From an uncultured Bacteroidales bacterium (GTDB taxonomy: Bacteria > Bacteroidota > Bacteroidia > Bacteroidales > Muribaculaceae), in the NCBI GenBank assembly GCA_902776435.1, contig CACYQB010000005.1, forward strand, positions 35,234 to 99,233: a DNA stretch of 64,000 bases, in the 5' to 3' direction. The notes beneath the pieces are model-generated. The model ran no database searches. It was not told where the DNA came from and saw only the letters and a list, made by a program, of their open reading frames with translations. The position numbers and the translations under genes are program-made. Each line of letters begins with the position of its first letter. Positions within the stretch are counted from its first letter, which is position 1. Positions 25,302-48,331 of this stretch are shown in pieces.

Positions 25302-26813
25302 TTACTTCCAGGAGGGGTCGCTCTCGTTCCAGCAGCGGTCGAGTGCGGTGACGGCATATTGCCACTTGCCCTTGCCTTCATCGGGCAGAGCGTAGGTAGT
25401 CTCTCCCGTGATGGCAAGAATATTGTCGGGGTTGTCAAGGTGGCCTTTCTTGCCCTTGGGATAGCGGTAAATGACATAGCGGACAGCATGCTGCATCGGG
25501 TTATCGTCCTCGTGAGGACGCCAAACCAGACATTTTTTGCCGCCGACCTTCTTGATATTGAGGTCATGCACACGATGAGGCTTCTCGCTATCCAGCCAAG
25601 TGTAAGCAGGAATGAGTGCCGGATGGCTCATCTGATTGCTTGACAGCGAGTCGAGCACACCCTTGTAGTTGCTCGTGATGCTGTAAGCGGGCCACCAGGT
25701 GACACCGTGCACGTCATCCATTGCACGTTGCAGGCGCAACTTGTGGTCGAGCTGAGTGGGATTGGTGGGATCACCACCCTCGGCAGCGATATCCTGATGG
25801 GACATCACGTTGTTGACCGCCTGGCCATAGTACATATGACGGCCGTAGGCATGGTCGTTCCACCAGTGCATGAGTGTCAAGTCGCTGGCACGTTCATGCT
25901 CCAGTTCCCAATAGAGTTGAGGCACCATATAGTCCACCCAACCTTCGCCAGTCCACTTGATGCAGTCAGCAAACAAGGCGTCATAACATTGCAGGCCATT
26001 GGTCTCGCTTCCATCGGGGTCACTGGTACGGTTGCGCCAGATACCAAACGGGCTGATGCCAAAGCGCACCCAGGGCTTTACTTCCTGAATGGTATTGTGC
26101 AATTGTTCGATGAGCAAGTCCACGTTGTGGCGGCGCCAGTCATTCTTATCCCACCCGATGCCGTACTCGTTATAGGAAGTCGTGTCGGGGAACTCCACGC
26201 CCGTCACGGGATAGGGATAGAAATAGTCGTCCATGTGCAGGGCGTCGATATCATAGCGCGTGAGGATGTCCCTTACGACCGTGTCGATGAAGTCTCGGCT
26301 CTCGGGCAGGCCAGGATCAAAGTAGAGTTTGCCATCGGCATACTTGAGGAACCACTCGGGATGCTCATAGTAGATGTGGCCTGGCGCGGGCTTATCCTCC
26401 TCACTGCTGGTCACACGATAGGGATTGATCCAGGCATGAAGTTCCATGCCGCGCTTGTGGGTTTGGTCAATCATGAACTGCAGAGGGTCCCACACGGGAT
26501 TGGGGGCCTTGCCCGGTTCACCCGTTAGCCAGCGGGTCCAAGGCTCAAGATCGCTCAGATAGGCAGCATCAGCCTGCGGACGTATTTGCCAGATAACGGC
26601 ATTACAATTGGCACGCTGCAGCAAGTCCAGTTGCTCGATAAGATACTGCCGTGTCTGCTCGGGCGTCATCTGAGCATACTGTTTCTGCCCGATGATGTGC
26701 ATCCACGCGCCTCGAAACTCATATTTGGGCGCTCCTGACAGCAGTGGCTCTTGAGCAGTCAAGCAACTTGCCAATGAGCCAAGCAGCAGAACCATGAAAA
26801 AAATACGTTTCAT
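25302..26813 (-). CDS. Glycoside hydrolase family 10-like (GHL10/UPF0748, YngK/DigH-type) protein with FN3-like tail
   Basis: EFRGAWM, WQIRPQADA, ELHAWINPYR, LHMDDYFYPYP, FGISPFGIW, DYMVPQLYW. Confidence 0.88.
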   Translation of the reverse strand: MKRIFFMVLLLGSLASCLTAQEPLLSGAPKYEFRGAWMHIIGQKQYAQMTPEQTRQYLIEQLDLLQRANCNAVIWQIRPQADAAYLSDLEPWTRWLTGEPGKAPNPVWDPLQFMIDQTHKRGMELHAWINPYRVTSSEEDKPAPGHIYYEHPEWFLKYADGKLYFDPGLPESRDFIDTVVRDILTRYDIDALHMDDYFYPYPVTGVEFPDTTSYNEYGIGWDKNDWRRHNVDLLIEQLHNTIQEVKPWVRFGISPFGIWRNRTSDPDGSETNGLQCYDALFADCIKWTGEGWVDYMVPQLYWELEHERASDLTLMHWWNDHAYGRHMYYGQAVNNVMSHQDIAAEGGDPTNPTQLDHKLRLQRAMDDVHGVTWWPAYSITSNYKGVLDSLSSNQMSHPALIPAYTWLDSEKPHRVHDLNIKKVGGKKCLVWRPHEDDNPMQHAVRYVIYRYPKGKKGHLDNPDNILAITGETTYALPDEGKGKWQYAVTALDRCWNESDPSWK

Positions 26814-26824
26814 CTATACTTGAA

Positions 26825-28276
26825 TTATCGGTCGTCTTCGGGAATTTCGTTCCAAACGTAGGCTCCGAGGTCCACAGCCCCCTTAGCCAAGCGGTCATAT
26901 CCATAGCGGTCATAGCGTGCCTCGGCCGGACATAGAGCGGGATTGCCCTTGCCGATGGCATCGCTCTCGTTGTCCAAGCGGTAATCAAAGAAATGATCAT
27001 CACGCACAGTGAGGAACATGGGGTCGCCTTTCCACACGCAGTTGATGAAATGAGCGTCATCAGTACCGTCACTCCTGAGCAGGCAGTAACGCAGATAGAC
27101 GTCAAAATTTTTCAGGTCGCCCTCATTAATGTCAGACGATAGACCGTAAATGATGCTGTTGTCGAAGTAAGCCTTGATTTTGCGGGTTGTGCCATCGCTA
27201 AACTCCACGTCAAAGACATTCAAGATGGGCAGCGAGGGCACCTTGAAAAGGTAATTGTTAGCAAAGGTGCACTGGCTCATCATGACCTTTCCTCCAGCGA
27301 AGTAGGCAACCTCCTCGGCAGCATCGCTGAATTCCGTGCCGATGGCCTGCACATAGCAAGTCGCTGTCGCCAGGCAGGTCGAAGCCGAGTTGGTGAGGAC
27401 ACAATTCACGAGTTTGAGGGCACAATTCACCGTGTCGCCATAGCCAGTCTCGCCATAGGCCGAGCAATGCATACCGATGCTGCTGCCCTTCATGATGACA
27501 TGCTTGAGCACATTGCCCATGGTGGGCGGCGTAAAGATGACGCCACCCCACTGGCCCGACATGACATCAAAGCTGGTGGAGCCCACCACATGATCCAGGC
27601 GGTCACCACGGAAGGTGATCGGTTCTTCAACCGTGCCATTGGCCAGCATACGGCCGGCACAGCGCAGCGTAGCCTTGTCATGGAAGAGCAGTGTAGCGCC
27701 CGCATCCAGCGTGAGTGTCACACCCGGCGAGACAAACAACGTGTCATAGATCAGGTAGGGCTTGGCAGCCGTCAATCGGGTATTGCTTGAGATGGTATCC
27801 CTCTCAATGCGCACCACATCCTGTCCCCAAGCGGTGAGCACCACTTTCTGGTTCATACCATTGGTTACAAACTCCAACCTGTCCTCTATCAGAGTGGGCT
27901 CATTCTTCTCCATCTCGTCGAGATAGGCCTCGATGAAGATAAAGATGGAGTCATTGCCGCGGATCTCCACATTCTGGAAAGAGTCTCCACGAACGCCGTC
28001 AACATTGAGGTGGAAACGGCCCTTGTCGGCAAGACCAGCGACCTTGATTGAGGAAATATTGATCTGCTTGTTGCTGCGGTTATAGACCACCATCTGCTTG
28101 GTGGCAGTGCCCTGTAATGTGATGACCGTGTCAAACGCCACGGTGTCCTTGCTAAACGCCAGCACATCACTTGACGAGGTCGTGAAGCCGTCCTCGATAC
28201 AAGACGACAATAATGTGCAGGCCACCAACATCGTTGTGGCTAACCACAAGGTGATTCTTGAATGATTCATTGTCAT
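26825..28276 (-). CDS. Conserved Bacteroidales lipoprotein (Ig-like plus beta-helix-like)
   Basis: Lipobox LLSSC; FSKDTVAFDTV, ITFRGDRLD, GQWGGV, DLGAY. Confidence 0.7.
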   Translation of the reverse strand: MTMNHSRITLWLATTMLVACTLLSSCIEDGFTTSSSDVLAFSKDTVAFDTVITLQGTATKQMVVYNRSNKQINISSIKVAGLADKGRFHLNVDGVRGDSFQNVEIRGNDSIFIFIEAYLDEMEKNEPTLIEDRLEFVTNGMNQKVVLTAWGQDVVRIERDTISSNTRLTAAKPYLIYDTLFVSPGVTLTLDAGATLLFHDKATLRCAGRMLANGTVEEPITFRGDRLDHVVGSTSFDVMSGQWGGVIFTPPTMGNVLKHVIMKGSSIGMHCSAYGETGYGDTVNCALKLVNCVLTNSASTCLATATCYVQAIGTEFSDAAEEVAYFAGGKVMMSQCTFANNYLFKVPSLPILNVFDVEFSDGTTRKIKAYFDNSIIYGLSSDINEGDLKNFDVYLRYCLLRSDGTDDAHFINCVWKGDPMFLTVRDDHFFDYRLDNESDAIGKGNPALCPAEARYDRYGYDRLAKGAVDLGAYVWNEIPEDDR

Positions 28277-28353
28277 GGGATTCTTCTGTTATCTATACTA
28301 TATAGAACGAGAGAGATGCCTTTTTAGTGTGCATGGCACGAGAATCAAGGTGG

Positions 28354-29409
28354 CTAACGCTCAAAAACGGCGACCAGCGGGTAATGGTCGCTCTCACCCT
28401 CCTTGTCACGACGGCACGACAGCACACGCAGGTTGCCGCGATAGAAAATGTGGTCAATCTTGACATAGAGGTGATGGGCATGGAAGGTATAAGTGGGGCC
28501 GAATCCAGCCTCGACCCACGCATCCAACAAGTCGTCACCACACAGGGTGCGGTAAGCATAAGAACCAGGCGTGTCGTTCATGTCGCCCATGACCACGACA
28601 TCACCCACGGTTTCATCAAGAAGGTCGCGCATGGCCTGTACTTGACGTACATGGGTGCGGAAACCGTAATCCAACTTGTTGACAACCGACTTGACGCGCC
28701 TCTTGCGGTCAGAGGGTTTGTTCATCTTCTCAATGATGCGCGCGTCGTTGGCCGTGAAACGCAACGAACTCAAGTGCATGCTGACCACCCGGATATCGCC
28801 ACCAGGAGCCTCTACGTCCCAAGCCTTGATAAAATAACTGATTGAATCAGAGGCAAGCGCCGGGGATTTCACATCAGTGTAAGGGTACTTGGAGAGAATA
28901 CCCACATCAAAAAAGGCCTTCTTGCGATAGGGATATTTTTTATACAATTCCTGCAGCATGGGCTGCACAGTCTTGAGCTGCTCATAAGAGAAATCGACCA
29001 GACCCTCCTGGATGACCACGACATCGGCATCCTGGTCAAGGATGTAGCGCATGGACTTGTTGGGCTTATCGCCCTCGGTCCAGTTAAACTGTGTAACGTT
29101 CATCGTCAAGACCTTGAGTTGGGTTTTGGATGGGTCAGCATCGGAATTGTGGAACAGGTTGAACGGTGATATCAAGCGCAGTGTTGGCCACGAGAGAAAT
29201 AATGCCCCCACCAGGACAACCGCTGCGCGCCACTGCCTGAAAATGGCCAACACTACCAACAAAGCCAGTACGCTAATGGCTATGACGGGCAGCGCCAAAG
29301 TCGCCATTGACGGCAGGGTCCAGATATTGGGATCTACACGTCCGCCATAGGCCGCAAAGAGCAATACAAAGGCTGCGACTATCGATATGAGACGAAAGAT
29401 ATATTTCAT
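28354..29409 (-). CDS. Endonuclease/exonuclease/phosphatase family protein with N-terminal membrane segments
   Basis: VLTMNV, VVVIQE, VMGDMND, KIDHIFY, SDHYPL; start moved to MKYIF. Confidence 0.88.
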   Translation of the reverse strand: MKYIFRLISIVAAFVLLFAAYGGRVDPNIWTLPSMATLALPVIAISVLALLVVLAIFRQWRAAVVLVGALFLSWPTLRLISPFNLFHNSDADPSKTQLKVLTMNVTQFNWTEGDKPNKSMRYILDQDADVVVIQEGLVDFSYEQLKTVQPMLQELYKKYPYRKKAFFDVGILSKYPYTDVKSPALASDSISYFIKAWDVEAPGGDIRVVSMHLSSLRFTANDARIIEKMNKPSDRKRRVKSVVNKLDYGFRTHVRQVQAMRDLLDETVGDVVVMGDMNDTPGSYAYRTLCGDDLLDAWVEAGFGPTYTFHAHHLYVKIDHIFYRGNLRVLSCRRDKEGESDHYPLVAVFER

Positions 29410-29425
29410 GTAACGAAATTGGTGA

Positions 29426-30451
29426 TTAAATGAGTTTCCATCCCGGTTTAAAGAATGGTTCTTGGGCGGTGAAGCGCGGGGCATAGGTCTTGAGTAGCCA
29501 GATTACAGGCCACAAGACCAGCATGGTTAACGCGAAAACGATTAGAGTCAATCCGATGCCAGGCTCCATACCGCCGCGCAGGATGAACCATGAGCGGATG
29601 GGCAGGAAGAGCACCATGTGGGTGCCCAATATAATGAGTGAGTAGCGCCCGTAGTGACACAGGACCGGGATGCGGGGAAGTGGCTTGCAAGCCCAGAAGA
29701 GTGACAGGATGGCCACAAAGGGTAAGACGTAGAGTTTCCAGTAGGCCGGCAATACCTGGAGGTGGAGATTCATGTAATCGCTCAAGTAATAGATGGGCAA
29801 CGCCACCACAGCCAGAACAAGAACGCCCCACTTGTCATAACGGGAGGGCTCCAAAACACCCAGGCGCTTTATCCCCCACCCTAAAACAAAATAAGGCAAT
29901 GCCACCATCGACGTATCGAGCATGAGCGGCAACTCCACTTTATGGCTACCCAACCAATAGCCTACGGCAGAAATGGCTATGGTCGCCAAGAGCAGCCCCC
30001 ATAGCGGTTTAATCAGGCGTTGCAGAGCATAGAAGATAATGTTTACCCAGAACAGGCTCAACAGAAACCAGAGCGGCGAGGTCAACAGCCAGGAGCGCAT
30101 GTAGAATGGTTCAATGAGGATACTCGGGTTGATATCGATGGGCTGGGCACCGATGAGATAACGGGCGCCAAATTCCACCAACCTTAATCCATAGGCCAGC
30201 ACCACAAAAAAAACGAACGGCACAAGGATGTTATTGACCTTGCGCCGCGTGAAATCGGCAAAGCCGCCATATAGCTTAAAGAAAATACCTGATATGAAAT
30301 AATACATCGGCAAGCGGAAAGCCTGCAGGGCATTATTCAGATTGGGAGCAAGATAGTTGAAAAACTCATGATCGATATGGTACATCACGATGAGCATGAT
30401 GCACAGGCATTTCATGAAGTCGATGTAGGCAATGCGCTGTGGTTGTGCCAT
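29426..30451 (-). CDS. Acyltransferase family 3 (membrane O-acyltransferase)
   Basis: RIAYIDFMKCLCIMLIVMYH, FRLPMYYFISG, PLWFLLSLF; about 10 TM segments. Confidence 0.88.
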   Translation of the reverse strand: MAQPQRIAYIDFMKCLCIMLIVMYHIDHEFFNYLAPNLNNALQAFRLPMYYFISGIFFKLYGGFADFTRRKVNNILVPFVFFVVLAYGLRLVEFGARYLIGAQPIDINPSILIEPFYMRSWLLTSPLWFLLSLFWVNIIFYALQRLIKPLWGLLLATIAISAVGYWLGSHKVELPLMLDTSMVALPYFVLGWGIKRLGVLEPSRYDKWGVLVLAVVALPIYYLSDYMNLHLQVLPAYWKLYVLPFVAILSLFWACKPLPRIPVLCHYGRYSLIILGTHMVLFLPIRSWFILRGGMEPGIGLTLIVFALTMLVLWPVIWLLKTYAPRFTAQEPFFKPGWKLI

Positions 30452-30675
30452 CAGATTTTTGACTCCAGCATAGCAATAACGCGGGAGAAGTCGGTCATCT
30501 CGGCAATCTCCTCGGGTTCCAGCTCGATGTCAAAGGCCTCCTCTAGTTCAGAAGCCAACGAGAGATGATGCAACGAGTCCCAGCGCTCACAATTCTTCTG
30601 AGATGCGTCGGTCGAGACCTCCTCCATGTCAAACACCTCACGCATGATTTCCAGCACTTTTTCTTCTAAGTTCAT
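30451..30675 (-). CDS. Acyl carrier protein (FkbH-associated type)
   Basis: 74 aa acidic; WDSLHHL phosphopantetheine site. Confidence 0.9.
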   Translation of the reverse strand: MNLEEKVLEIMREVFDMEEVSTDASQKNCERWDSLHHLSLASELEEAFDIELEPEEIAEMTDFSRVIAMLESKI

Positions 30676-32267
30676 AATACTCTGATATTGTAACAGTTCT
30701 TAATTTCAAACATTTCATTTAAATCCAAGCTATAATGCTTGGCGCACGAATCATCGGTTCTCACACAGGTCAAGCCCATGCGGTCATAGAAATCGGCCGT
30801 CTGGCCGTTCTTGGCCGTTGGCAGATATTCGGCTGTGATGTGGCGATAGCCATCCAGCCTCAACAGATTGAAGACCGTCTTAATGAAAGCCTCCTCAATC
30901 CCCTTACCGAGAATGCGGCAACTGAGCAGCAGCGAGTCGATATTGACAGTGACATCATCACTAGGCTCAAGGAAAACCGCAGCCGTAATTCCACTGTCAC
31001 CAAAACGGTCTCTCACGCTCATGCAAAAAACGCGCCAACCCTGGTCAATACGCTGTTGCACATCGGTCTCGGTATAGCGGCGAGTCGTGAGATTGAACTG
31101 GTTGGTCTTCTGAGTCATCTGCGCGATGCGCGGCAAGTTGTGCTCGTCAGCAGGGATGATATCGAGTTCCATATCCAGGCTATAGAGATAGGTCTCGAGG
31201 TCGGCAAAATGGGACTGCTCAGCCTGTCGCAAAGCGTTGGCACGGTACTGTTCGGTCTTGGTACGGTCCTCACTGGTCACGGCATAGATGCGGAAATATT
31301 TCTCAACCAGTTGCTTGAAGAACGGCATGAGTTCATAGGGCTTTGCCGGGAAATCCGGGACCTCGACCTGGGGAAGCACCTGCTTAATCAATTCACGTTC
31401 AGTGGGATTGTCATCGACAAAAACCATGCTGTCCAACCCGATATTGAGTTCGGCGGCTATCTCGCGGATGTTGGTCGCCTTGTCCTGCCAGTTAATACGT
31501 AGAGAACTGAAATGTTCGCGCTTGAGCACCATGAACGGATTGTGCTGCCATGCCTCATCGACGTCGGCCTCGTTGTTCTTGCTACAGACTGCCAAGATCA
31601 CGCCATTGTTCGCCAGCTGCAGCAATGAGCGCTGCCAATAGGCAAAGGCCTTGCCAGGATAGTCACCGCCCAACTTGATGCCGTCGACTCCATCCTCACC
31701 GAGCACGCCACCCCACAGGGTGTTGTCAAGGTCAAGGATTAGACACTTCTTGCGTTGCAGGGCCAACTCACCCTCGATGCGCTGCCACCAAGTCTGGAAA
31801 TCGCGAGCCAACTTGGGGTTGAGTAGCGTCTGTGACATGAGATAATATTTCCAATTAACCAGTGTTTCAGCATCATAACGGCCCAAGAACTCCGAGAAGT
31901 CCACCCACTTGACATGGGCACGCGTCGCCGCCAATTCGGCAGCATGATTGTTGAAAGCAGCAATCGCCTGGCTCACAGCGGTCTCGTCACCAGTAAGCCT
32001 CAAGGGGAAGAGGTTTTCAAGAGAGAAAATGACAAAGGGTTTGCCAGAATCGGCAGTTGCCAAAACCAAATCCAGTTTATCCCTGTAGGAATCAATTTCC
32101 TGAGCCAGTTGGGCGCTATCGGGATTCACGGGAACCTGATAGAACCAAATATAACGGTCCACCTCGGCGGGGATTACACTGATGTCGTCATAACCTGAAT
32201 AGGTCACGCCATCATATCCCAAGAAGGCTTCAACCGTCTGATTGCGAAAGACAAAAGTAGTCATCAT
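30672..32267 (-). CDS. FkbH-like HAD-IIIC glyceryl-ACP synthase with C-terminal GNAT-like domain
   Basis: LILDLDNTLWGGVLGEDG, CSKNNE, FVDDNPTER, QKTNQFNLTTRRY, DRFGDSG, LLSCRILG. Confidence 0.92.
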   Translation of the reverse strand: MMTTFVFRNQTVEAFLGYDGVTYSGYDDISVIPAEVDRYIWFYQVPVNPDSAQLAQEIDSYRDKLDLVLATADSGKPFVIFSLENLFPLRLTGDETAVSQAIAAFNNHAAELAATRAHVKWVDFSEFLGRYDAETLVNWKYYLMSQTLLNPKLARDFQTWWQRIEGELALQRKKCLILDLDNTLWGGVLGEDGVDGIKLGGDYPGKAFAYWQRSLLQLANNGVILAVCSKNNEADVDEAWQHNPFMVLKREHFSSLRINWQDKATNIREIAAELNIGLDSMVFVDDNPTERELIKQVLPQVEVPDFPAKPYELMPFFKQLVEKYFRIYAVTSEDRTKTEQYRANALRQAEQSHFADLETYLYSLDMELDIIPADEHNLPRIAQMTQKTNQFNLTTRRYTETDVQQRIDQGWRVFCMSVRDRFGDSGITAAVFLEPSDDVTVNIDSLLLSCRILGKGIEEAFIKTVFNLLRLDGYRHITAEYLPTAKNGQTADFYDRMGLTCVRTDDSCAKHYSLDLNEMFEIKNCYNIRVL

Positions 32268-32269
32268 TA

Positions 32270-33277
32270 TTACTTCTTTAACATGCGATAGAGCTTACTC
32301 ATCATGGACCACAGGCGAGGATGCATCATCAAGCGGTGAATCAACTTCCATTTTGTGCTGCCATAATTGGCTTCCGGCCCCACGCAGGGGAAAGGATACA
32401 AGCCCACAGCACGCATGCGGTCCAGCACATCATCGACCAAACCAGCAGAGAATGCCCGAGTCAAAGCAAAGTAGAGATACACATTCCTCAAACCGGCCAC
32501 GCTGGCGGGTGCCACCTGACGTGAGGTCTCATTGAAACGCTTGATTGTGCCATCGATTGAAGAGGCTGAATCAACCTGGCTGAAAAGTCGATTCCTCAAG
32601 TGATTGATATCCGTATTGTTCATCGCGCTGCCTGCACGCTTCACATAACAGTAGGGGGCAGCATCATGATGTGCCACGCGGGAGGCCTGGAGCATGAATT
32701 GCGCGATGACTTCCCCATCCTCGCACACGATGAGCGAAGGATCAAAACGCCAGTTGTGATGTTTAAAAAACTCACGTCGAATGAGATAACGCCAGATGTA
32801 GGGCGTCATGCTGTGACCTTCAAGGTATTCAACTCCCGTCATGACGCCAGTCGTTGCACTGGCATTCTCAGAGGCTATAGTCACCGTGCCATCGGGGAAT
32901 GCCATCCTGTTGTTCAAAACCATCACATCCAGGTCCAGTTCAATCGCACGCGTAATCAGCGATGCCATCGACTGTTCAATCAGGTAGTCATCACTATCGA
33001 CAAACTGAATGTAACGGCCACGGGCATGATCCAACGCCAAATTGCGCGCGCTGCTCACCCCCGCATGGGACTGGCAGAGGATGCGTACAACAGGATGCTC
33101 TCTGGCAAACGAATCCACTACGGCTACAGTGCCGTCGGTTGACTCATCATCTACAGCGATGATTTCGTATTGTTCAGGATTTAGCCCTTGATTGACAAGA
33201 GACTGCAAGCACTTGAGCACATAAGGCTCAGTGTTATATAGTGGTACAATATATGTTAGGAGGATATCACTCATCAA
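32270..33277 (-). CDS. Glycosyltransferase family 2
   Basis: IVPLYNTE, VDDESTD, SARNLAL, FVDSDD. Confidence 0.9.
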   Translation of the reverse strand: MMSDILLTYIVPLYNTEPYVLKCLQSLVNQGLNPEQYEIIAVDDESTDGTVAVVDSFAREHPVVRILCQSHAGVSSARNLALDHARGRYIQFVDSDDYLIEQSMASLITRAIELDLDVMVLNNRMAFPDGTVTIASENASATTGVMTGVEYLEGHSMTPYIWRYLIRREFFKHHNWRFDPSLIVCEDGEVIAQFMLQASRVAHHDAAPYCYVKRAGSAMNNTDINHLRNRLFSQVDSASSIDGTIKRFNETSRQVAPASVAGLRNVYLYFALTRAFSAGLVDDVLDRMRAVGLYPFPCVGPEANYGSTKWKLIHRLMMHPRLWSMMSKLYRMLKK

Positions 33278-33672
33278 GAGAGCGTCTCGACCAATTCAAT
33301 AAGGCCGGTGTTTTTCTGGAACAGAAATGCCACTCGCCTATCCTGCATGGCACAGGCAGGAACTGGGCCGCTCACGAGCAAGAAGCGCTTTCCTCGCAGC
33401 ATAGCAATAGCGGCTTCAATGTCCTGTACCTTATAGCAGATGTGATAAGGCGATACCCCGACGGCCGAAAGCGTTCGCAGCACTGGACTCTGCTCGTCCA
33501 GAGGCTCAAGCAGTTCCAAGCAGGGTTCCCCTTCCTTGTTCAAAAAACAAATGCGGACGTGCTGTAACACGTCCTCGACAGTTGCCGATGTCTCATAACC
33601 CATCGACAAGTAAAAAAGCTTAGTCTTTTCGATATCTCGGCAGGCAATGCCGATGTGGTCAAAGGTAAGCAT
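33274..33672 (-). CDS. VOC family protein, methylmalonyl-CoA epimerase-like
   Basis: FDHIGIAC, CLELLEP, YHICYKV, LIELVE: four H/E metal ligands. Confidence 0.85.
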   Translation of the reverse strand: MLTFDHIGIACRDIEKTKLFYLSMGYETSATVEDVLQHVRICFLNKEGEPCLELLEPLDEQSPVLRTLSAVGVSPYHICYKVQDIEAAIAMLRGKRFLLVSGPVPACAMQDRRVAFLFQKNTGLIELVETLS

Positions 33673-33695: not shown

Positions 33696-34745
33696 TTAAT
33701 ACTCGATGACGGGCGACACGTTGCAGTCGCGCATGTTCATGATGGCGGAGCCCCAGCTCAAGCCAGCGCCAAAGCCACTCATCAGCACCAAATTGTCACC
33801 CGCAAGGCGTCCACTCAATTCACTCGAGATGGTCAAGGGCACCGAAGCGCTGCTGGTGTTACCGAACTTGTGGATGCAATAAGGAACCTTGTCAGGAGAA
33901 ACCTTAAGCTTCTTGACAAAGAAGTCCATCATGAAACGGTTGGCCTGGTGGAAGACCAAATAATCCAGGTCCTCAACTGAGCGTTCGGTCTCCTTGAGGA
34001 GCTGCTTCACGCTCTTAGGCACCTTGCTGATGGCAAAGTTGAAGACATCCATGCCGTCCATATACACTTCGAGGTCGGTGCGGATGTTTCCATCCTCGCG
34101 CTCACGCTCCACACAGGACTCGGCGGTGATGGGATTGCGCATACCCGCATGAATCTTCAACGTGTCCTCTCCGCTGCCATCGGTATTGAGAATAAACGTG
34201 GAATCGCCATATTCGCCTTTCTCGATAAGCGTTGCCGTTCCTGCGTCACCATAGAGGGGCCAATCGACCTTGTCGCGACGATTGACAATCTTAGAGAACG
34301 TCTCGCCATCGAGCAGGAGTACACGGTTCACGCCCTCCATCGACGCATAGGCAAAAGCGGCACTCAAGGCAAACAGGTAGCCCGAGCATCCTAACGTAAT
34401 GTCAAAGCACAAGGTTTCACGAGGTAGCCCCAAACGGTGCTGGAGCAGACAGGATGTCGCGGGAATGCGGTAATCGGCCGTCTGACTCATGAATAACAAG
34501 ACGTCAATGCTGTCTGGCTCAATATTGTTGTCGGCAAACAACTGCTGAGCAGCCTTGAAACAAAGGTCGCTCGCTGTCACATCGGGAGCGGCAATACGTC
34601 GCTGCTCAATGCCAATGTTGTTGATGGTTTTCTCGATTTCCTCCTCAGGAATAAGATAACCCAGGTCCTTGTTATAAACAATGTCCTGGGGTACACATGC
34701 AGTGAGGGCTTTGATGCCCACACCATGATAGGTTATTTTTGCCAT
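33696..34745 (-). CDS. Ketoacyl-ACP synthase III (FabH-like, locus-specific)
   Basis: Catalytic triad LGCSG, FHQAN, FGNTSSAS; GFGAGLSWG. Confidence 0.92.
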   Translation of the reverse strand: MAKITYHGVGIKALTACVPQDIVYNKDLGYLIPEEEIEKTINNIGIEQRRIAAPDVTASDLCFKAAQQLFADNNIEPDSIDVLLFMSQTADYRIPATSCLLQHRLGLPRETLCFDITLGCSGYLFALSAAFAYASMEGVNRVLLLDGETFSKIVNRRDKVDWPLYGDAGTATLIEKGEYGDSTFILNTDGSGEDTLKIHAGMRNPITAESCVEREREDGNIRTDLEVYMDGMDVFNFAISKVPKSVKQLLKETERSVEDLDYLVFHQANRFMMDFFVKKLKVSPDKVPYCIHKFGNTSSASVPLTISSELSGRLAGDNLVLMSGFGAGLSWGSAIMNMRDCNVSPVIEY

Positions 34746-34795: not shown

Positions 34796-35029
34796 TCATT
34801 CAACCCTAGACTTTACAATATTATAAAGGTCTTCGACGGTGTTGCTGTTGCGTATGTCTTCTCCACGGAATTCCACATCATACTCCTCGTCAATCATCGC
34901 GATTACCGACAACGCGAGAAGGGATGACCACTCTTCCAAATCCTTAAACGATGTGGTTTCATTTATGGTATCAGGGTCTGTTTCGTCAAACAGATCCGTA
35001 AAGTTCTCTATAAATTGGTCTATACTCAT
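34796..35029 (-). CDS. Acyl carrier protein
   Basis: 77 aa acidic; EEWSSLLALSV site; TVEDLY. Confidence 0.88.
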   Translation of the reverse strand: MSIDQFIENFTDLFDETDPDTINETTSFKDLEEWSSLLALSVIAMIDEEYDVEFRGEDIRNSNTVEDLYNIVKSRVE

Positions 35030-35113
35030 ACTGTATATCTATATTTCTTGAATTAATCTAGAATCATTTTTGCCATTTAAACGTAAATACACCTATGGTA
35101 TTTTAACGGGGGG

Positions 35114-35121
35114 CAAAAATA
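35114..35121 (-). promoter_or_regulatory. Internal -7 promoter element (TATTTTTG) for the ACP-FabH-VOC-GT2-FkbH-ACP-AT3 block
   Basis: TAnnTTTG in a 287-nt AT-rich gap, about 85 nt upstream of the ACP start. Confidence 0.4.
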
Positions 35122-35316
35122 ATCAAAAAAAATCATATCGACACATCTAGGCAGAATATTTAACGAGAAAAAGCCGAAAACGGGTGAAAAAATGGACTTT
35201 TGGGCAAATAATATGCTCTAAATATGTCTGGAATGGAATCTAAAGGCGGTCAACGCCACCAGCACCATAGATTGTAAATTATGCAAGATTTGGATTTCAG
35301 ATATTATACTTGATGA

Positions 35317-36456
35317 TCACTTGCAGCAAGCGATAATCTCTTTTGCAACCAGTTCTACCTGTTCATCGGTCACCCAGGGGCCACTGGGCAGACAAAGCCC
35401 CTTGGTGAACAAATCCTCGCTTACACCGTTGACATAGGCTGGTGCGCCGGAGAAGACGGGCTGGGTGTGCATGGGCTTCCACAAGGGACGTGACTCGATG
35501 TTGCAGGCATCGAGATGTTGCCTAACGGTCTCATAATCGGTTCCCGTCTTAACAGGGTCAATCAGGATGGTGTTAAGCCAGTAGTTACTGTCAGAACGTT
35601 CATCAAAGTTGACATGCACGTCAATACCGTCAACTTCGGCAAAGAGTTCGACGTATCGGTCACACAGGTGCCTGTGGTGAGCCAAGTGCTCATCGAGGAC
35701 GGTCATCTGTCCGCGACCGATGCCAGCACAGATGTTGCTCATGCGGTAGTTGTAGCCGATCTCCTTATGGAGATAATAGGGCATGGGCTCACGTGCCTGC
35801 GTCGCATAGAACATGATTTTCTTTTTGGTCACCTCATCAGGGCAAATGAGCGCACCACCGCCACTGGTGGTGATCATCTTGTTACCATTGAAACTCATGA
35901 TGCCATAGTCGCCAAAGGTGCCACACAACTGTCCACGATAACGGGAGCCGAAGGCCTCGGCCGAATCCTCAACAACGGGAATCTCGTATCGACGGGCGAT
36001 TTCCATAATATCATCAATCTTGGCTGGCATGCCATACAGATAAACGGGAATAATGGCCTTGGGCTTGCGGCCAGTATTGGCAATACGGTCCTTGATGGCA
36101 TCTTCGAGCAGATTGGGATCCATGTTCCAGGTGTCTGGCTCACTATCGACGAAGACAGGGACACCGCCTTGATAGGTGATGGGATTGGCGCTTGCCGAGA
36201 AAGTCATCGACTGGCAGATCACCTCATCATCACGGCCAACGCCTAAGTTTACGAGAGCCAGATGAATGGCAGCAGTGCCAGAACTGAGCGCGACAACCTT
36301 CTTATTTTCACCACACAACTGTTCAAGATCCTCTTCAAAGGCATTCACATTGGGACCCAGGGGCACCACCCAATTGGTATCAAAAGCCTCTTGAATATAC
36401 TTCATCTCTTGGCCACTCATGTGAGCGAGACATAACAAAATCTTATCGTTTGCCAT
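35317..36456 (-). CDS. DegT/DnrJ/EryC1/StrS sugar aminotransferase (PglE/EpsN-like)
   Basis: SSGTAAIHLAL, EDSAEAFG, SFNGNKMITTSGGG, GYNYRMSN, ESRPLWKPMH. Confidence 0.93.
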   Translation of the reverse strand: MANDKILLCLAHMSGQEMKYIQEAFDTNWVVPLGPNVNAFEEDLEQLCGENKKVVALSSGTAAIHLALVNLGVGRDDEVICQSMTFSASANPITYQGGVPVFVDSEPDTWNMDPNLLEDAIKDRIANTGRKPKAIIPVYLYGMPAKIDDIMEIARRYEIPVVEDSAEAFGSRYRGQLCGTFGDYGIMSFNGNKMITTSGGGALICPDEVTKKKIMFYATQAREPMPYYLHKEIGYNYRMSNICAGIGRGQMTVLDEHLAHHRHLCDRYVELFAEVDGIDVHVNFDERSDSNYWLNTILIDPVKTGTDYETVRQHLDACNIESRPLWKPMHTQPVFSGAPAYVNGVSEDLFTKGLCLPSGPWVTDEQVELVAKEIIACCK

Positions 36457-36472
36457 AAAAAATTATTTACTG

Positions 36473-37057
36473 TTATATGATTTCATCATTTTCTGGAGCA
36501 TGGCCTGGATAGACGGTGCGATGCTCTGCTAATTGCTTGATAATAGTTTCACTGCAAGCCGCCTGCTCTTTGTTGCAGTGAGGTAAATTGGTCACGGTCT
36601 TTACCCCCGGAATGTAACTGTCACCGGTGAACATAACGTCATCGAGCACCCATGTCACGCAGCATGGACTATGACCTGGTGTGAAAACTGCCTTCACGTT
36701 CACACCATCGAACAGTTCAAACTGTTCTCCGTCTTGCAGTATTCTGATGTTTTTAACGGGTTGTATTTGGAGAGTATTGCCGTAAAACTTAGAAAAATTC
36801 AACTTGTCGTTATATAAGGTCTCATAGCCGCTGTCATTGGTATAGATGGCCACATCTGGATACATGTTCAACAACTGATTGAGACCATAGATGTGGTCAA
36901 AATGGCCATGGGTGAGCAGGACGCCGCAAAGGGTACCTTCAATAAGAGGCAGAATCTGGTCTAGGTCCCCACAATCAACAAGCCATGAACAACCATCCTG
37001 AGTCACGATATAACTACAGGAACGGAAGATGGAATTGACAACCTGACGGATGATCAC
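36473..37057 (-). CDS. Metallo-beta-lactamase fold hydrolase (glyoxalase II-like)
   Basis: LLTHGHFDHIYG, TPGHS, FTGDS, YPGH; likely GTG start at 37057. Confidence 0.85.
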   Translation of the reverse strand: MIIRQVVNSIFRSCSYIVTQDGCSWLVDCGDLDQILPLIEGTLCGVLLTHGHFDHIYGLNQLLNMYPDVAIYTNDSGYETLYNDKLNFSKFYGNTLQIQPVKNIRILQDGEQFELFDGVNVKAVFTPGHSPCCVTWVLDDVMFTGDSYIPGVKTVTNLPHCNKEQAACSETIIKQLAEHRTVYPGHAPENDEII

Positions 37058-37070
37058 CGGGTAAGGAAAA

Positions 37071-37823
37071 CTATAGGGAGAAGCCGCCGTCAAGAACCAG
37101 ATCATGACCTGTCATCCACGCCGAAGCGTCGCTCAATAGGTAGATAGCGGCATTGGCGACATCCGTGGGTTCGCCATAGCGGCCCAGCGGGTAACGTTTA
37201 GCGTCCTCGGCCAGTTGTTCCTCGGTGATTGTGCCATCATGGATGAGCGGTGTGTTGACCATGCCAGGGCAGATGCTGTTGACGCGTACCATGCGGGCAG
37301 CATACTCGCGGGCAGCATAACGCATGATTGAATTCAACGCAGCCTTGGATGCGCCATACACGCCATTGCCCGGCATGAAGCTATGGGTACCGCCAATGGA
37401 GGCGATTAATACCACAGACGCACCTTTAAGAAGCACTTTCTTCTTGTACATCAAGCGCAGCAACTCGACAGGGGCAAAGAAATTGATGTCAAACATGCTA
37501 TCGAATTTCTCGCGCGTGCCGAATTGCAACGGCAACGTCATCGAGTTACCAGCACACAGCACTGCTCCATCGAGTTTAGGCAGCTCGCCCACGAGGCGCT
37601 CCACATCCTGCTGGACAGTCATATCAGCAAGCAACTGCATGTGGCCCTCGACCTCGGGATTCAATTGGTCAAAAGTAGCATGCAGACGTTCCTGATTGCG
37701 GGCTGTTATGACAACTTTCGCACCCATTCGCGAGCAAGCGATGGCCGATTCTTGGCCGATGCCAGAAGATGCGCCAGTCACCAGAACGGTCTTACCCGTT
37801 AGCGTGAAAGGATTATATTCCAT
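37071..37823 (-). CDS. SDR oxidoreductase (3-oxoacyl-ACP reductase-like)
   Basis: TGASSGIG, YGASK, RVNSICPG, DGGFS. Confidence 0.9.
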   Translation of the reverse strand: MEYNPFTLTGKTVLVTGASSGIGQESAIACSRMGAKVVITARNQERLHATFDQLNPEVEGHMQLLADMTVQQDVERLVGELPKLDGAVLCAGNSMTLPLQFGTREKFDSMFDINFFAPVELLRLMYKKKVLLKGASVVLIASIGGTHSFMPGNGVYGASKAALNSIMRYAAREYAARMVRVNSICPGMVNTPLIHDGTITEEQLAEDAKRYPLGRYGEPTDVANAAIYLLSDASAWMTGHDLVLDGGFSL

Positions 37824-37864: not shown

Positions 37865-39139
37865 TTATTCAAATTCAAATTTCTTGGCGGGGACACCGAT
37901 ATACGTTTGTCCATCCTTCGGTTTAGTCATGAGCACGCTGCCAGCACCGAGGGTGACATTGTCTCCGACATGGATCTTCTGCAGCACGACGCTGTCAACA
38001 CCGAACAAGTTGCAGCAGCCCACACGAACAGCCCCAGACAGACGAACAGCAGGCATGAGCACATTGAAATCCCCGACGACCACATCGTGGCCCAGCACAT
38101 TGGACCCATTCAGCACATTGAAATTACCCACCGTCACGTCACAAGTAGCACTGCACCCCTCCTGGATGATATTGCCCTGGCCAATCTTGAACGTACTAGG
38201 ATCCAATATCTTGAACGAAGGAGCAATCAGATTCGGATAATAGATATTCGGGTTAGTAATACGGCTCTGAATGTTATAACGCGTCCTAGGATCTCCAATA
38301 GCAATCGCTAACGCAAGAGGTTCACTCACCGAATTGAGATCCTCCATTCCTCCCAAAACTTCCCCATAGTGAGAAACCGATGAACCTACCTGCTTATTGT
38401 CATCAAAGAAACCAATGAAATTCCACCTTTCTTTCCCAAACTTGTTAATCTTTTCGATTCCACCAGCCACTTCACGGCCTAATCCGCCTGCTCCATAGAC
38501 AGCTATCCGCTTTGCACTATCATCAGCAATATCATGATTACCGGAACAGCAGCCTTGTTGTGACCTGATTCGGCAAGGATTGCCATAAGCAATCGCGCCA
38601 TCGGGCACGTCTTGGACAACAACACTACCAGCGCCTACTATACTCCACTTGCCAATCCTTACTCCAGGAATCACTACAGCCGCTGCGCCGATCCATGCGC
38701 CCTCTCCGACATGAACGTTTCCGCACAGGGTGGCCTGAGGTGAAACATGGACGAAGTCCTCAATAATACACTCGTGATCGACCGATGCTCCTGTGTTCAA
38801 AATGCAATGTGAACCTATTGTCGCTCCGCTCTGGATAATTGCTCCTTGCATCACGACTGTACCCTTCCCCATTCTAACATTGGGAGAGATAATCGCTGAC
38901 GGATGGCGAACTGTAGCAAAATCGCATTGCTGAAGTTTGTCAACAATCTGCTTGCGAACTGTATTATTTCCAATGCTCACAATGACAGGAGACTCGCCTT
39001 GCCACTGATGCTTGACAGGTGTTGATAACAACTCGTTGATGGTAATATCATCATCAAAGAGGGCATCAATCTTAATATTTAAGGCCTTAAGAATGTCAAT
39101 AATGACCTTAGCGTGGCCACTGGCTCCGTAAAGATACAT
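37865..39139 (-). CDS. Tandem-fused double PglD/NeuD-family LbH acyltransferase
   Basis: Domain 1 LYGASGHAK...DHEC...GNPCR; linker; domain 2 VYGAGGLGRE...GHDVVVG...GVPAKK. Confidence 0.88.
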   Translation of the reverse strand: MYLYGASGHAKVIIDILKALNIKIDALFDDDITINELLSTPVKHQWQGESPVIVSIGNNTVRKQIVDKLQQCDFATVRHPSAIISPNVRMGKGTVVMQGAIIQSGATIGSHCILNTGASVDHECIIEDFVHVSPQATLCGNVHVGEGAWIGAAAVVIPGVRIGKWSIVGAGSVVVQDVPDGAIAYGNPCRIRSQQGCCSGNHDIADDSAKRIAVYGAGGLGREVAGGIEKINKFGKERWNFIGFFDDNKQVGSSVSHYGEVLGGMEDLNSVSEPLALAIAIGDPRTRYNIQSRITNPNIYYPNLIAPSFKILDPSTFKIGQGNIIQEGCSATCDVTVGNFNVLNGSNVLGHDVVVGDFNVLMPAVRLSGAVRVGCCNLFGVDSVVLQKIHVGDNVTLGAGSVLMTKPKDGQTYIGVPAKKFEFE

Positions 39140-39144
39140 AACGC

Positions 39145-39759
39145 TTAATTATTTCCGTTAAATGCTTCCATTGTTGCTTGACCGTCCTGAGATATGCCAT
39201 CACGGACAATCACTTTTTTTATCGTGGTGAGAATCACCTCTATGTCTGTCTTGAAACTGCAGTGGTCAACATACCACACATCAAGTTTAAACTTCTCAGT
39301 CCAAGACAATGAGTTGCGGCCATGACATTGAGCCCAACCTGAAATGCCTGGCCTCACTTCATGGCGCCGAGCTTGCTCTGGAGAATACAAAGGCAAATAC
39401 TGCACCAAAAGAGGCCTTGGGCCAATAATGGCCATGTCACCTTTGAGCACATTGAAAAGCTGTGGTAGCTCATCTATACTGGTTGAGCGAACGAAACGCC
39501 CTACCCTAGTTAACCGCACTTCGTCTGGCAGGAGTTCTCCATTGGCGTCTCGCTCATCAGTCATTGTCTTATATTTGATAATCTTGAAAATCTTGCCATT
39601 CTTGCCAGGGCGCTCCTGAAAGAAAAACGCACCAGCGCCCTTGTTGGCAAAATGAAGCCAAATGGTCACCACTAAAAACAATGGTGACAGACAAATGATG
39701 GCAATGAGGGAAATACAGAATCCCAACACACGTTTGATATGGTCACGGTATATCTTCAC
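39145..39759 (-). CDS. Initiating phosphoglycosyl transferase (PglC-like)
   Basis: FFQERPG, KYKTM, SIDELPQLFNVLKGDM, IGPRP, RPGISGWAQ. Confidence 0.93.
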   Translation of the reverse strand: MKIYRDHIKRVLGFCISLIAIICLSPLFLVVTIWLHFANKGAGAFFFQERPGKNGKIFKIIKYKTMTDERDANGELLPDEVRLTRVGRFVRSTSIDELPQLFNVLKGDMAIIGPRPLLVQYLPLYSPEQARRHEVRPGISGWAQCHGRNSLSWTEKFKLDVWYVDHCSFKTDIEVILTTIKKVIVRDGISQDGQATMEAFNGNN

Positions 39760-43108: not shown

Positions 43109-44082
43109 AACTTCAAAATATAATTCGGAATATGTATATATTCCCGTGATTTCACCATCCTCATCCCATCTCTGATACCCATGCAATAGAAATAAAGGAC
43201 TTTCGGCGAACGAAAATAAACCGAAGCACCAATATGTGATAAGAACAGCCACATAGTTTTAAAAATAAAAGCCAATATAGCCCTCAACTTCTTATAGGTT
43301 GGCAAGTTGTCAAGATTATAACAGATCCTGTGCCAAACCATTAACGAAGCCATCGAACGGGTGTAGAACTTCTTGGGATCACGCTGGAATGCTGCGCTTG
43401 ATGATTTACCGTCAAGGTGGTTAATGCCGCAATTGTAGTGCATTCCTAATCGGTAGCCATTCTTATAGAGTTTATTGAAAATGAGGTTATCGTCGCCAAA
43501 AGAGAAACCAAATCTGTCAATCCAAAGCTCATCTTCGTAATGCAAATCCCGAAAAACCTTTTTACGCCATAACGCGGCTGGACCAGCAGCACTTTGGGAA
43601 AGATATATATCTTTTGTAACTCGATTGTTATAACTGAAACTGCCGTTACTGTGTATCTTCACAGCCCAGGTATCACTCCAATGAGGGAACACCAAATTTG
43701 TTACCGCAATATAAACTTTCTTTGGAAACGAAATCATATAATTTCTAAAAGTAACTGCGGCAATGCAATCGAAGTTGTTCTCCTCTAATGCCTCTATCAA
43801 TTTATGTGCACTATCATCTGCCAGTTCCACATCGTCATCAAGCATTAGAATCAAGGGGGTATCAATTTCATCATATGGCAAAACGCGCTGTGCCATCATC
43901 CCTTTCTTGACCCAAACATATTCTTCTTTGCCAATCGTATAATCAGGACGATCATATCCTTCAGCAATATAGATGACAACCTTTTCAGGCTGAACAGTCT
44001 GCCGCTTTATGGACTCTAGTTCCCTGACAAATTTTTCGCCCGAAGTCCCCAACGTCCGTATTGCAATAGAGTATTTCGTCAT
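43105..44082 (-). CDS. GT-A fold glycosyltransferase (GT2-like)
   Basis: SIAIRTLG, LMLDDDVEL DxD motif, FGDD. Confidence 0.75.
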   Translation of the reverse strand: MTKYSIAIRTLGTSGEKFVRELESIKRQTVQPEKVVIYIAEGYDRPDYTIGKEEYVWVKKGMMAQRVLPYDEIDTPLILMLDDDVELADDSAHKLIEALEENNFDCIAAVTFRNYMISFPKKVYIAVTNLVFPHWSDTWAVKIHSNGSFSYNNRVTKDIYLSQSAAGPAALWRKKVFRDLHYEDELWIDRFGFSFGDDNLIFNKLYKNGYRLGMHYNCGINHLDGKSSSAAFQRDPKKFYTRSMASLMVWHRICYNLDNLPTYKKLRAILAFIFKTMWLFLSHIGASVYFRSPKVLYFYCMGIRDGMRMVKSREYIHIPNYILKL

Positions 44083-47322: not shown

Positions 47323-48327
47323 TTATAATTTTAGCAAGAATGCTAGTGGAGTGTGACGGATTGCCTCGGACAGGGCTGCAGAGGCGATTGTATAGAAAAT
47401 AGCTATCATGATAGCGAGTGCTGGGTGTACCGTCAACTCGTTGAGTACAGGGAAAATCCATCCTAGTACAATCATGAGAACTAAATGGAAAATATAAATG
47501 CCTAAGGCGTTATTGGCGAGAAACGAGACGAATCGCTTGAACCAATTTACACTTGTATCATAATCCTTGATGAACAAAAATAACGCCATCGATAGGAACA
47601 ATGCGCCAAAGGTGGGGAAACAGTAATTTCCGCCCTCGAACTGGAAGTGAGTGACATTGACAGTTGCGATTACTTCAATCACAAGCAAGGAGAGACCTGC
47701 TAATGCCAGTGCAATGGCCATCCACGTCTTGCCCTGGTAATCTTTTAGGTAATCACCCATGTACAAATACACCACACCATACAAGGTAAACAAACCTGTT
47801 CGCCAGCAAGGCAAGGTCGTTTCAGGATTGTGTAAGATGACCAAATCCCATCCCAAATTGGCGGCAAATGGATAAATCAACAATGCTGCAACTAAAGCCC
47901 ATCGACACCACTTAGGCAAGTAACTCAACATGTGATTAATCAAATACATGAGAGCCAGCGAAAACAGGAACCAATAAAAGCCCAATGCCGAGATGGAGAA
48001 TTCAGACAAGTCATGGTTGCTCATGGCCTTGAGACACATGATGACCAATGCCCAAAATATGCCTGCCACAATCAACCGTCCGGCCTTAGTGACCGACTTC
48101 TTCAGGTCGTAGTTACGACTAACTGTCAGCGCGCCATTAACCATGAAGAACAAGGGTACACCACAAGCACAGAAGAGCCACAACACCTGCCAAATCGTTG
48201 GATAAAAATAAACGCCGTCTTGGTAGCCAAAATCCACCATCCCAACATGATAGAGGACAACAAAAAAAGCAGCAAGGGCTTTTAACGCGTCATAGCCGAA
48301 AATGCGTTTTTTGCTCACCATTTCCAT
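47323..48327 (-). CDS. Acyltransferase family 3
   Basis: YDALKALAAFFVVLYH, VPLFFMVNG, YWFLFSL, GIYIFH; start at MEMVS. Confidence 0.88.
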   Translation of the reverse strand: MEMVSKKRIFGYDALKALAAFFVVLYHVGMVDFGYQDGVYFYPTIWQVLWLFCACGVPLFFMVNGALTVSRNYDLKKSVTKAGRLIVAGIFWALVIMCLKAMSNHDLSEFSISALGFYWFLFSLALMYLINHMLSYLPKWCRWALVAALLIYPFAANLGWDLVILHNPETTLPCWRTGLFTLYGVVYLYMGDYLKDYQGKTWMAIALALAGLSLLVIEVIATVNVTHFQFEGGNYCFPTFGALFLSMALFLFIKDYDTSVNWFKRFVSFLANNALGIYIFHLVLMIVLGWIFPVLNELTVHPALAIMIAIFYTIASAALSEAIRHTPLAFLLKL

Positions 48328-48331
48328 TTTC

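Follow-up and report, generated by a model that had tools for sequence, protein, structure and literature searches.

A putative glycerate-loading acyl-decoration block in the capsule locus of an uncultured Muribaculaceae bacterium

Gene content and layout of the capsule locus

The 64,000-nucleotide stretch of contig CACYQB010000005.1 analyzed here (contig positions 35,234 to 99,233; hereafter the window) comes from a 3.4-Mb Bacteroidales genome and holds one capsule locus of ∼26 kb, which runs from ∼55.3 kb down to 29.4 kb with every gene on the minus strand. The subject of this study is the acyl-decoration block at the 3′ end of that locus, in which a polyketide-type enzyme, FkbH, and an acyl carrier protein (ACP) have apparently been borrowed for decorating the capsule, by all appearances on an amino sugar. 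The upstream part of the locus encodes glycosyltransferases, a pyruvyl transferase, a first acyltransferase of family 3 (AT3), and an EpsG-type polymerase. The locus continues with a PglC-like enzyme, a fused double PglD, a short-chain reductase (SDR), a metallo-β-lactamase-fold (MBL) hydrolase, a DegT aminotransferase, ACP1, a β-ketoacyl-ACP synthase III (KAS III), a vicinal oxygen chelate (VOC) protein, a family 2 glycosyltransferase (GT2), FkbH, ACP2, and a second AT3. The features needed below are these:

33274-33672, minus strand: VOC metalloenzyme, 132 amino acids (Glyoxalase_4, E 2.8e-19)
32270-33277, minus strand: GT2 glycosyltransferase, 335 amino acids (PF00535, E 1.6e-28)
30672-32267, minus strand: FkbH-like HAD-IIIC phosphatase/glyceryl transferase, 531 amino acids (TIGR01686, 296.1 bits; HAD-IIIC, 79 bits)
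30451-30675, minus strand: ACP2, 74 amino acids, with its serine in a WDSL motif (ERWDSLHHL) (PP-binding)
29426-30451, minus strand: AT3 membrane acyltransferase, 341 amino acids (PF01757, 98 bits)
33696-34745, minus strand: KAS III, FabH-like (PF08541/PF08545)
34796-35029, minus strand: ACP1, 77 amino acids, with a WSSL motif (PP-binding)
35317-36456, minus strand: DegT-type sugar aminotransferase (PF01041, E 1.5e-92)
36473-37105, minus strand: MBL-fold hydrolase, glyoxalase-II-like (Lactamase_B; weak match to GSH_gloB, the glyoxalase II model)
37071-37823, minus strand: FabG-like SDR (adh_short_C2, E 3e-54)
37868-38503, minus strand: C-terminal half (residues 213-424) of the PglD/NeuD-type transferase, within a 424-amino-acid open reading frame at 37865-39139 that TIGR03570 matches twice
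39145-39759, minus strand: PglC-like initiating phosphoglycosyl transferase (Bac_transf, E 6.8e-59)
47323-48393, minus strand: the first AT3, the other gene of this kind in the capsule locus

The domain matches of the five genes from VOC through AT3 lie far beyond chance, and their start and stop codons overlap as expected from an operon. The VOC/GT2 junction (...TCTTGATGAGT) is a one-base TGATG overlap if GT2 starts at ATG and a four-nucleotide overlap if it starts at TTG; GT2 and FkbH are separated by two nucleotides (TAA-ta-ATG), FkbH and ACP2 share an ATGA overlap, and ACP2 and AT3 share a TGATG overlap. The tight linkage of these five genes described in the first-pass annotation, with its coordinates and junctions, was borne out in every detail by the sequence reading. 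The unit is larger than the five genes first noted, for ACP1 and KAS III lie directly upstream, KAS III only 23 nucleotides from VOC, and both belong to the same conserved block. The 287-nucleotide AT-rich gap ahead of ACP1 (35030-35316, minus strand) carries the motif TATTTTTG, which by pattern match alone fits the Bacteroidetes promoter element TAnnTTTG and is a possible internal promoter; the genes from ACP1 to AT3 may constitute a separate sub-operon. A scan for promoters and terminators was uninformative, as it used the sigma-70 consensus, which is unsuited to Bacteroidetes promoters.

FkbH, its carrier, and the VOC protein

FkbH scored 296.1 bits against the TIGR01686 model (cut-off 146.65) over residues 173 to 498, which comprise the HAD part and the C-terminal domain. 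In an alignment with 25 diverse homologues (32-47% identity), the HAD motifs D179xD181, T183, S229-K230-N231, and D285-D286 were intact and invariant or nearly so, and the C-terminal S449-C450-R451 was invariant. The HAD part matches PDB 3SLR, an uncharacterized Bacteroides fragilis protein (BF1531), with an E value of 1e-42. The family is large (14,085 clusters at 50% identity), and a copy above the model cut-off was found in 18 of 301 sampled genomes of the phylum (∼6%). Gene context was compared across 98 loci, with 19 from the phylum sample and 80 from a species-level scan (one genome each), in addition to the window and one close relative. In 69 of the 98, as in the window, the gene immediately following FkbH encodes an ACP. 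ACP2 belongs to the ACP type that follows FkbH in every lineage, and its identity to ACP1 is only 25%. ACP1 is of a different type, 40 to 78% identical to ACPs encoded four to six genes ahead of FkbH in the cassette loci. Judged by these comparisons, ACP2 is the carrier dedicated to FkbH, and ACP1 is of the type that goes with PglD and KAS III. FkbH enzymes load glycerate from 1,3-bisphosphoglycerate onto an ACP. Because of its membership in this family, the window enzyme is predicted to do likewise, and FkbH and ACP2 probably load glyceric acid drawn from glycolysis. Its family membership and intact motifs, together with the recurrent downstream ACP, uphold the earlier view of FkbH and its own carrier as a pair taken over from polyketide chemistry to form glyceryl-ACP. 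Separately, a gene for a 4′-phosphopantetheinyl transferase was seen ahead of FkbH, at a distance of one or two genes, in six loci from Asgard, Nanoarchaeota, Saccharibacteria, and Dehalococcoidia hosts (L063, L068, L071, L102, L105, and L109), an arrangement that fits a self-sufficient carrier-protein module.

The predicted metal ligands of VOC (H6, E53, H77, and E126) are invariant among 20 aligned VOC proteins, and C79, two residues past H77 in a YHxCY motif, is nearly so. The same H-E-H-E set is present in the bona fide methylmalonyl-coenzyme A (CoA) epimerase of this genome and in other Bacteroidota epimerases, which confirms the ligand set that the first-pass annotation had ascribed to VOC; a Streptomyces epimerase structure has Q at the second ligand position. 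VOC scored 66.4 bits on TIGR03081, the methylmalonyl-CoA epimerase model, below its cut-off of 114.95, and was rejected as the housekeeping epimerase because the true copy (143.9 bits) lies elsewhere in the genome, on another contig (C3:75716-76108). A same-strand VOC homologue immediately precedes FkbH in 19 of the 98 loci, and in 30 a homologue lies within three genes of it; these 30 loci span eight phyla (Bacteroidota, Verrucomicrobiota, Acidobacteriota, Planctomycetota, Pseudomonadota, Bacillota, Saccharibacteria, and Asgard archaea). Among the matches listed and read from the 301 phylum genomes, those not beside FkbH were all canonical epimerases of the GEGIHHIAF type, and the YHxCY type was seen only beside FkbH. 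By this pattern VOC belongs to a distinct YHxCY clade, separate from the housekeeping epimerase. It is also optional, in that otherwise identical cassettes within one genus occur with and without it. The insertion of GT2 between VOC and FkbH is confined to the window lineage, related cassettes having VOC directly beside FkbH; a homologous GT2 occurs within three genes of the cassette in 17 of the 98 loci.

These observations make it plausible that VOC tailors a carrier-bound glyceryl (2-hydroxyacyl) thioester, most simply as a C2 epimerase. Its on/off pattern and its two-glutamate metal site, of the kind found in enzymes that move thioester alpha-protons, fit an epimerase without proving one. 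As to the proposal that VOC epimerizes glyceryl-ACP, the partnership with FkbH stood up well (a distinct clade, recurring within three genes across phyla), and the epimerization itself is kept as a prediction. A search of the available literature library found no paper linking FkbH with glyoxalase-type proteins, and just three papers there name FkbH along with polysaccharide.

A different possibility is that the module is unrelated to the capsule. VOC and MBL could be a glyoxalase I/II pair: the nearest solved relative of VOC is glyoxalase I of Clostridium acetobutylicum (PDB 2QH0/3HDP, E 8e-18), with the YHICY motif in common and epimerases next in line, and MBL weakly matches glyoxalase II. 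Alternatively, FkbH, ACP, and a FabH-like enzyme, which form the core of the tetronate pathway (PMC7489565), could make a tetronate or butenolide small molecule. We regard both versions as very improbable. In many phyla VOC keeps its place beside FkbH, and in each case the setting is a glycan locus containing PglD, DegT, and glycosyltransferase genes; this conserved context argues against a detoxifying role. Moreover, a FabG-type reductase and a PglD transferase are in keeping with sugar acylation. The window also lacks a polyketide synthase, Agg4/Agg5-type genes, and FkbK, FkbI, and FkbG. On the same grounds two established FkbH pathways were rejected for this block: the methoxymalonyl-ACP pathway, as a Pfam survey of all locus genes gave no FkbK-type or FkbI-type dehydrogenase and no FkbG O-methyltransferase, and the tetronate glycerate-utilization cassette, for which FkbH, ACP, and a FabH-like protein are present but the remaining genes are not. 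In the comparison set, a neighbor of the 3-hydroxyacyl-CoA dehydrogenase (3HCDH) type occurred in only four loci.

Modular cassettes and the route of the acyl unit

The window PglD gene is a fusion of two complete units, where close relatives have a single 213-amino-acid gene. The C-terminal unit shares 50 to 58% identity with the PglD genes at the head of FkbH cassettes, among them two loci (L048/L185) in which PglD-FkbH-ACP stand alone; the N-terminal unit is not of the cassette type and is 34% identical to a deltaproteobacterial PglD. Within the genus the cassettes form a series: PglD-FkbH-ACP; PglD-VOC-FkbH-ACP; PglD-ACP-SDR-KAS III-FkbH-ACP; and PglD-ACP-KAS III-SDR-KAS III-VOC-FkbH-ACP. 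The PglD-type N-acyltransferase is the only transferase present throughout, while the number of KAS III/reductase rounds varies from zero to two and VOC is optional. A seven-gene form, PglD-ACP-SDR-KAS III-VOC-FkbH-ACP, is seen again in other Bacteroidales. In a Verrucomicrobium these seven genes alone form a same-strand run at that position, with opposite-strand genes on the flanks, and the part of the cassette visible on a short contig from Lachnospiraceae (ACP-SDR-KAS III-VOC-FkbH-ACP) keeps this order. The second ACP of the seven-gene cassettes is followed by glycosyltransferases, a LicD protein, or nothing. Since homologous cassettes have no AT3, another outlet for the acyl unit is needed, and the predicted one is PglD, in the window its C-terminal half. 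The same PglD type (56-60% identity) also heads PglD-ACP-KAS III-SDR cassettes without FkbH, including PglD-ACP-KAS III-SDR-KAS III, and for this reason we take PglD to be, most probably, an N-acyltransferase with acyl-ACP donors and a tolerance for different acyl groups.

The other enzymes of the block agree with the cassette types. The window SDR is 44 to 54% identical to the cassette reductases. MBL homologues occur in nine comparison loci, all nine of which also have KAS III, and the hydrolase is possibly a thioesterase or editing enzyme. For DegT, an iterated profile drifted to 124 matches and was discarded, and the single-sequence result was used. The catalytic triad of KAS III (C120, H266, and N296) is kept in all 24 aligned proteins. 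In their tree the window enzyme groups with other VOC-adjacent KAS III proteins from three phyla in an unresolved part, outside a supported clade that holds nearly all KAS III proteins of FkbH-less cassettes; one protein from an FkbH-less cassette falls among the VOC-adjacent ones, and one locus carries a KAS III of each kind. We consider this separation suggestive, not decisive. Very divergent KAS III proteins were seen in two loci of Chitinophagales and relatives (L036 and L123), where a cassette of SDR, MBL, KAS III, methyltransferase, MaoC-dehydratase/reductase fusion, FkbH, ACP, AMP-ligase, GNAT, and DegT genes resembles a more complex N-acyl line that includes glycerate; this divergent KAS III clade also occurs with MBL, SDR, FkbH, and ACP in a different gene order in other phyla (L116, L072, and L090).

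Two independent decorations could also be encoded here, in which case KAS III, the reductase, ACP1, and PglD would make an N-(3-hydroxybutanoyl) amino sugar, and glyceryl-ACP2 would serve another acceptor through the N-terminal PglD unit or a transferase encoded elsewhere. The two carriers are indeed of different types, the fused second PglD domain occurs in the window alone, PglD-ACP-KAS III-SDR cassettes exist without FkbH in other genomes, and a comparable gene set has been assigned to 3-hydroxybutanoyl-viosamine in Pseudomonas syringae (PMC3927599). However, the seven-gene cassettes elsewhere have one PglD for two carriers, close relatives keep both carriers and lack the N-terminal PglD domain, and the VOC-adjacent KAS III proteins fall outside the supported clade to which nearly all those of FkbH-less cassettes belong. 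On balance we think this arrangement unlikely.

The first-pass annotation had placed AT3 at the end of the pathway: FkbH would make D-glyceryl-ACP2, VOC would epimerize it, and AT3 would O-glyceroylate the polysaccharide directly from the phosphopantetheine arm, in a Dlt-like manner with AT3 replacing MBOAT. The AT3 gene, whose full-length PF01757 match (98 bits, cut-off 31) covers residues 7 to 317, does follow ACP2 directly with its TGATG overlap; the phosphopantetheine thioester is common to CoA and holo-ACP; plain acetylation could be left to the other AT3 of the locus; and MBOAT cassettes in 13 other loci show membrane O-acyltransferases pairing with FkbH-ACP. Yet in the 98 loci and the close relatives, AT3 follows FkbH-ACP only in the window lineage and its orthologous blocks. 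The gene has 274 detectable homologues; the 120 listed are all at least 67% identical to it, and every close homologue whose context was checked belongs to the same orthologous block. Within the genus the block is present in 14 genomes, and one further genome (G436) has it without AT3. This natural variant (L181, G436:C4:36000-53999) reads MBL-DegT-PglD-ACP1-KAS III-VOC-GT2-FkbH-ACP2 followed, after 92 nucleotides, by a phosphatase-family gene, and its VOC is 70% identical to that of the window. Nine AT3 paralogues elsewhere in the genus are 38 to 51% identical to the window protein, and eight of them have neither ACP nor FkbH nearby. The ninth (47% identity), which speaks for the first-pass proposal, lies divergently beside an FkbH-ACP-MBOAT cassette; that locus (L174, G412:C161) has a different FkbH of 577 amino acids followed by ACP, MBOAT, and a gene for a 309-amino-acid protein. 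A search of 401 phylum genomes for dependence of the AT3 clade on an ACP gave one 26%-identical match and one paralogue in the window genome, neither near an ACP. We know of no AT3 enzyme shown to use an acyl-ACP. Direct transfer by AT3 therefore seems doubtful to us, and with PglD the sole transferase in homologous cassettes, the role of glyceryl transferase assigned to AT3 was not supported. The survey of co-occurrence that had been suggested for FkbH, VOC, and AT3 gave a divided outcome, in that the link between FkbH and VOC recurs and that of AT3 is limited to one lineage. AT3 is probably an ordinary O-acetyltransferase added in the window lineage; the contextual hints as to whether it takes acetyl-CoA or acyl-ACP are weak.

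The reading that we prefer, in which we place moderate confidence, is that a glycerate unit, possibly epimerized and possibly extended once by KAS III, would be N-linked to an amino sugar made by DegT. FkbH would load the D-glycerate of 1,3-bisphosphoglycerate onto ACP2, as expected of its family, and VOC would then, in the simplest case, invert C2 of the carrier-bound 2-hydroxyacyl thioester from D to L through a metal-bound enediolate. The unit could next be delivered directly to the PglD-type N-acyltransferase, or it could prime the VOC-adjacent KAS III for one extension with malonyl-ACP1, which after the reductase step would give a C5 trihydroxyacyl group; we take these two routes, glyceryl-ACP2 direct to PglD and one KAS III/reductase round on ACP1, to be about equally likely. 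From the comparison of gene order, the acceptor would be a 4-amino sugar made by DegT, amide-linked to the acyl group and placed on the lipid carrier by the PglC-like enzyme, and it is predicted to be a first sugar of the bacillosamine type. AT3 would act as a lineage-added O-acetyltransferase of the ordinary kind.

Several observations weigh against this proposal. The PglD type that it relies on also heads KAS III cassettes without FkbH, so the KAS III part could make a 3-hydroxyacyl group of its own, independently of FkbH. No feature of the VOC sequence tells an epimerase from an enzyme of other enediolate chemistry. To our knowledge, no glycan with a C5 trihydroxyacyl amide has been reported. 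Finally, the gene after FkbH-ACP in other lineages is often an acyltransferase (MBOAT, GNAT, or PglD): MBOAT genes occur in 13 loci, directly after FkbH-ACP in ten, PglD-type genes take that place in four to six, and GNAT acetyltransferases do so in several. In the window, AT3 with its overlapping start holds this post-ACP position. Other lineages clearly have membrane O-acyltransferases that, by their gene order, would be fed by the carrier partnering FkbH. In seven Acidobacteriota loci (L062, L070, L079, L092, L095, L115, and L120) FkbH-ACP is followed by a conserved protein of ∼376 amino acids that has no Pfam family and may be an acyltransferase outside the filed families; VOC lies upstream of FkbH-ACP in four of them (L062, L070, L095, and L120), and a sulfotransferase and a FemAB-like GNAT are among the neighboring genes.

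A bolder version of the preferred reading, which we offer tentatively and would not yet call probable, treats the block as a small type II assembly line primed with VOC-epimerized glyceryl-ACP2. KAS III and malonyl-ACP1 would extend the unit, reduction would yield a 3,4,5-trihydroxypentanoyl group, and a PglD that uses acyl-ACP would transfer it to the amino sugar. The genus would then shuffle the modules (zero, one, or two KAS III rounds, VOC and AT3 each being optional) and so diversify its capsule antigen. We are not aware of 3,4,5-trihydroxypentanoyl as a reported glycan substituent.

Other parts of the locus and its flank were also read. No Wzx flippase, Wza, or Wzc was recognized among the open reading frames of the capsule locus (29400-55400), and two stretches (43253-44078 and 48394-48972) contain no open reading frame of at least 70 amino acids on the locus strand. 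Directly after AT3, at 25302-29409, lie three genes that accompany the block in all relatives checked, including those in which the more distant flanks are different. They encode a membrane-anchored protein of the endonuclease/exonuclease/phosphatase (EEP) family, a protein of ∼480 amino acids for which the sole hint is a faint beta-helix match in a relative, and a GHL10 lipoprotein-type hydrolase, and they may function in capsule processing or anchoring.

Relation to known systems and implications

The window loader is a member of the FkbH family. The block itself lacks the partner genes that define methoxymalonyl, tetronate, and Dlt systems and is therefore none of these. FkbH/FkbJ of the FK520 methoxymalonyl-ACP pathway and Mad14/Mad12 and Mad7/Mad8 of tetromadurin (PMC7489565) resemble the window pair in the HAD motifs, the C-terminal S-C-R cysteine, the dedicated ACP encoded directly afterwards, and the predicted substrate 1,3-bisphosphoglycerate. 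The window differs from them in having no FkbK/FkbI, FkbG, or polyketide synthase and in its setting of DegT, PglD, PglC, and glycosyltransferase genes, with a product predicted to reside on a sugar. In tetronate pathways FabH-like enzymes have been proposed to take glyceryl-ACP as a substrate (PMC7489565), the step that the extended route would ask of KAS III. The viosamine island of P. syringae (vioA, vioS, vioR, acp, and vioB) shares with the window an aminotransferase, a KAS III, a 3-oxoacyl-ACP reductase, a small ACP, and a VioB/PglD-type transferase of ∼213 amino acids, and this set has been assigned, partly from mutants and partly from homology, to N-(3-hydroxybutanoyl)viosamine, a 3-hydroxyacyl amide on a 4-amino sugar (PMC3927599). 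Beyond that set, the window has FkbH, VOC, and another type of ACP, and its starter may be glycerate in place of acetate.

VOC has the fold family and the H-E-H-E metal site of methylmalonyl-CoA epimerase (PDB 6WF6, 3RMU, and 1JC4) and glyoxalase I (3HDP/2QH0), enzymes whose chemistry concerns a thioester alpha-carbon or a 2-hydroxyacyl thioester, as is predicted for VOC. It departs from both in its score below the epimerase cut-off, its YHxCY clade, its position beside FkbH, and its predicted carrier-bound substrate. Dlt D-alanylation and the 13 FkbH-ACP-MBOAT loci have in common a carrier-protein thioester as the acyl donor for a surface glycopolymer. Dlt-like acylation through a carrier and MBOAT was rejected for the window, in which neither an MBOAT nor a DltD-like partner is encoded and the membrane enzyme is an AT3, whose link to the carrier is unsupported by the comparison.

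Glycerate-derived amides of the kind predicted here are found on the Pse5Am7Gra of Tannerella forsythia (PMC5378307) and the di-O-methylglyceroyl pseudaminic acid of Campylobacter jejuni 11168 (PMC3068675), although the acceptor in both is a nonulosonic acid and that of the window is predicted to be of the bacillosamine type. N-Glyceroyl sugars exist in Bacteroidota, and their genetic and biochemical basis was called a major challenge in 2017 (PMC5378307). The flagellar locus of C. jejuni 11168 contains cj1299, an ACP gene, cj1301, annotated as an epimerase, and cj1302, a gene with an FkbH domain (PMC7099621, PMC6109747). Our literature search found no experimental link between these genes and the glyceroyl modification of C. 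jejuni, and a search combining FkbH with glyceroyl returned polyketide papers only. Two neighboring genes, cj1303 and cj1298, are presumably fabH2 and a PglD-like transferase gene, respectively.

FkbH-ACP cassettes in glycan loci are thus a concrete and testable genetic candidate for the origin of glyceroyl and methylglyceroyl groups on surface sugars. If the predicted activity is correct, the VOC clade would be a new type of enzyme, a metalloenzyme acting on a carrier-bound 2-hydroxyacyl thioester, and the presence or absence of VOC may predict L- or D-glyceroyl decorations. The modular series found within the genus suggests that capsule antigens are diversified by the shuffling of such modules.

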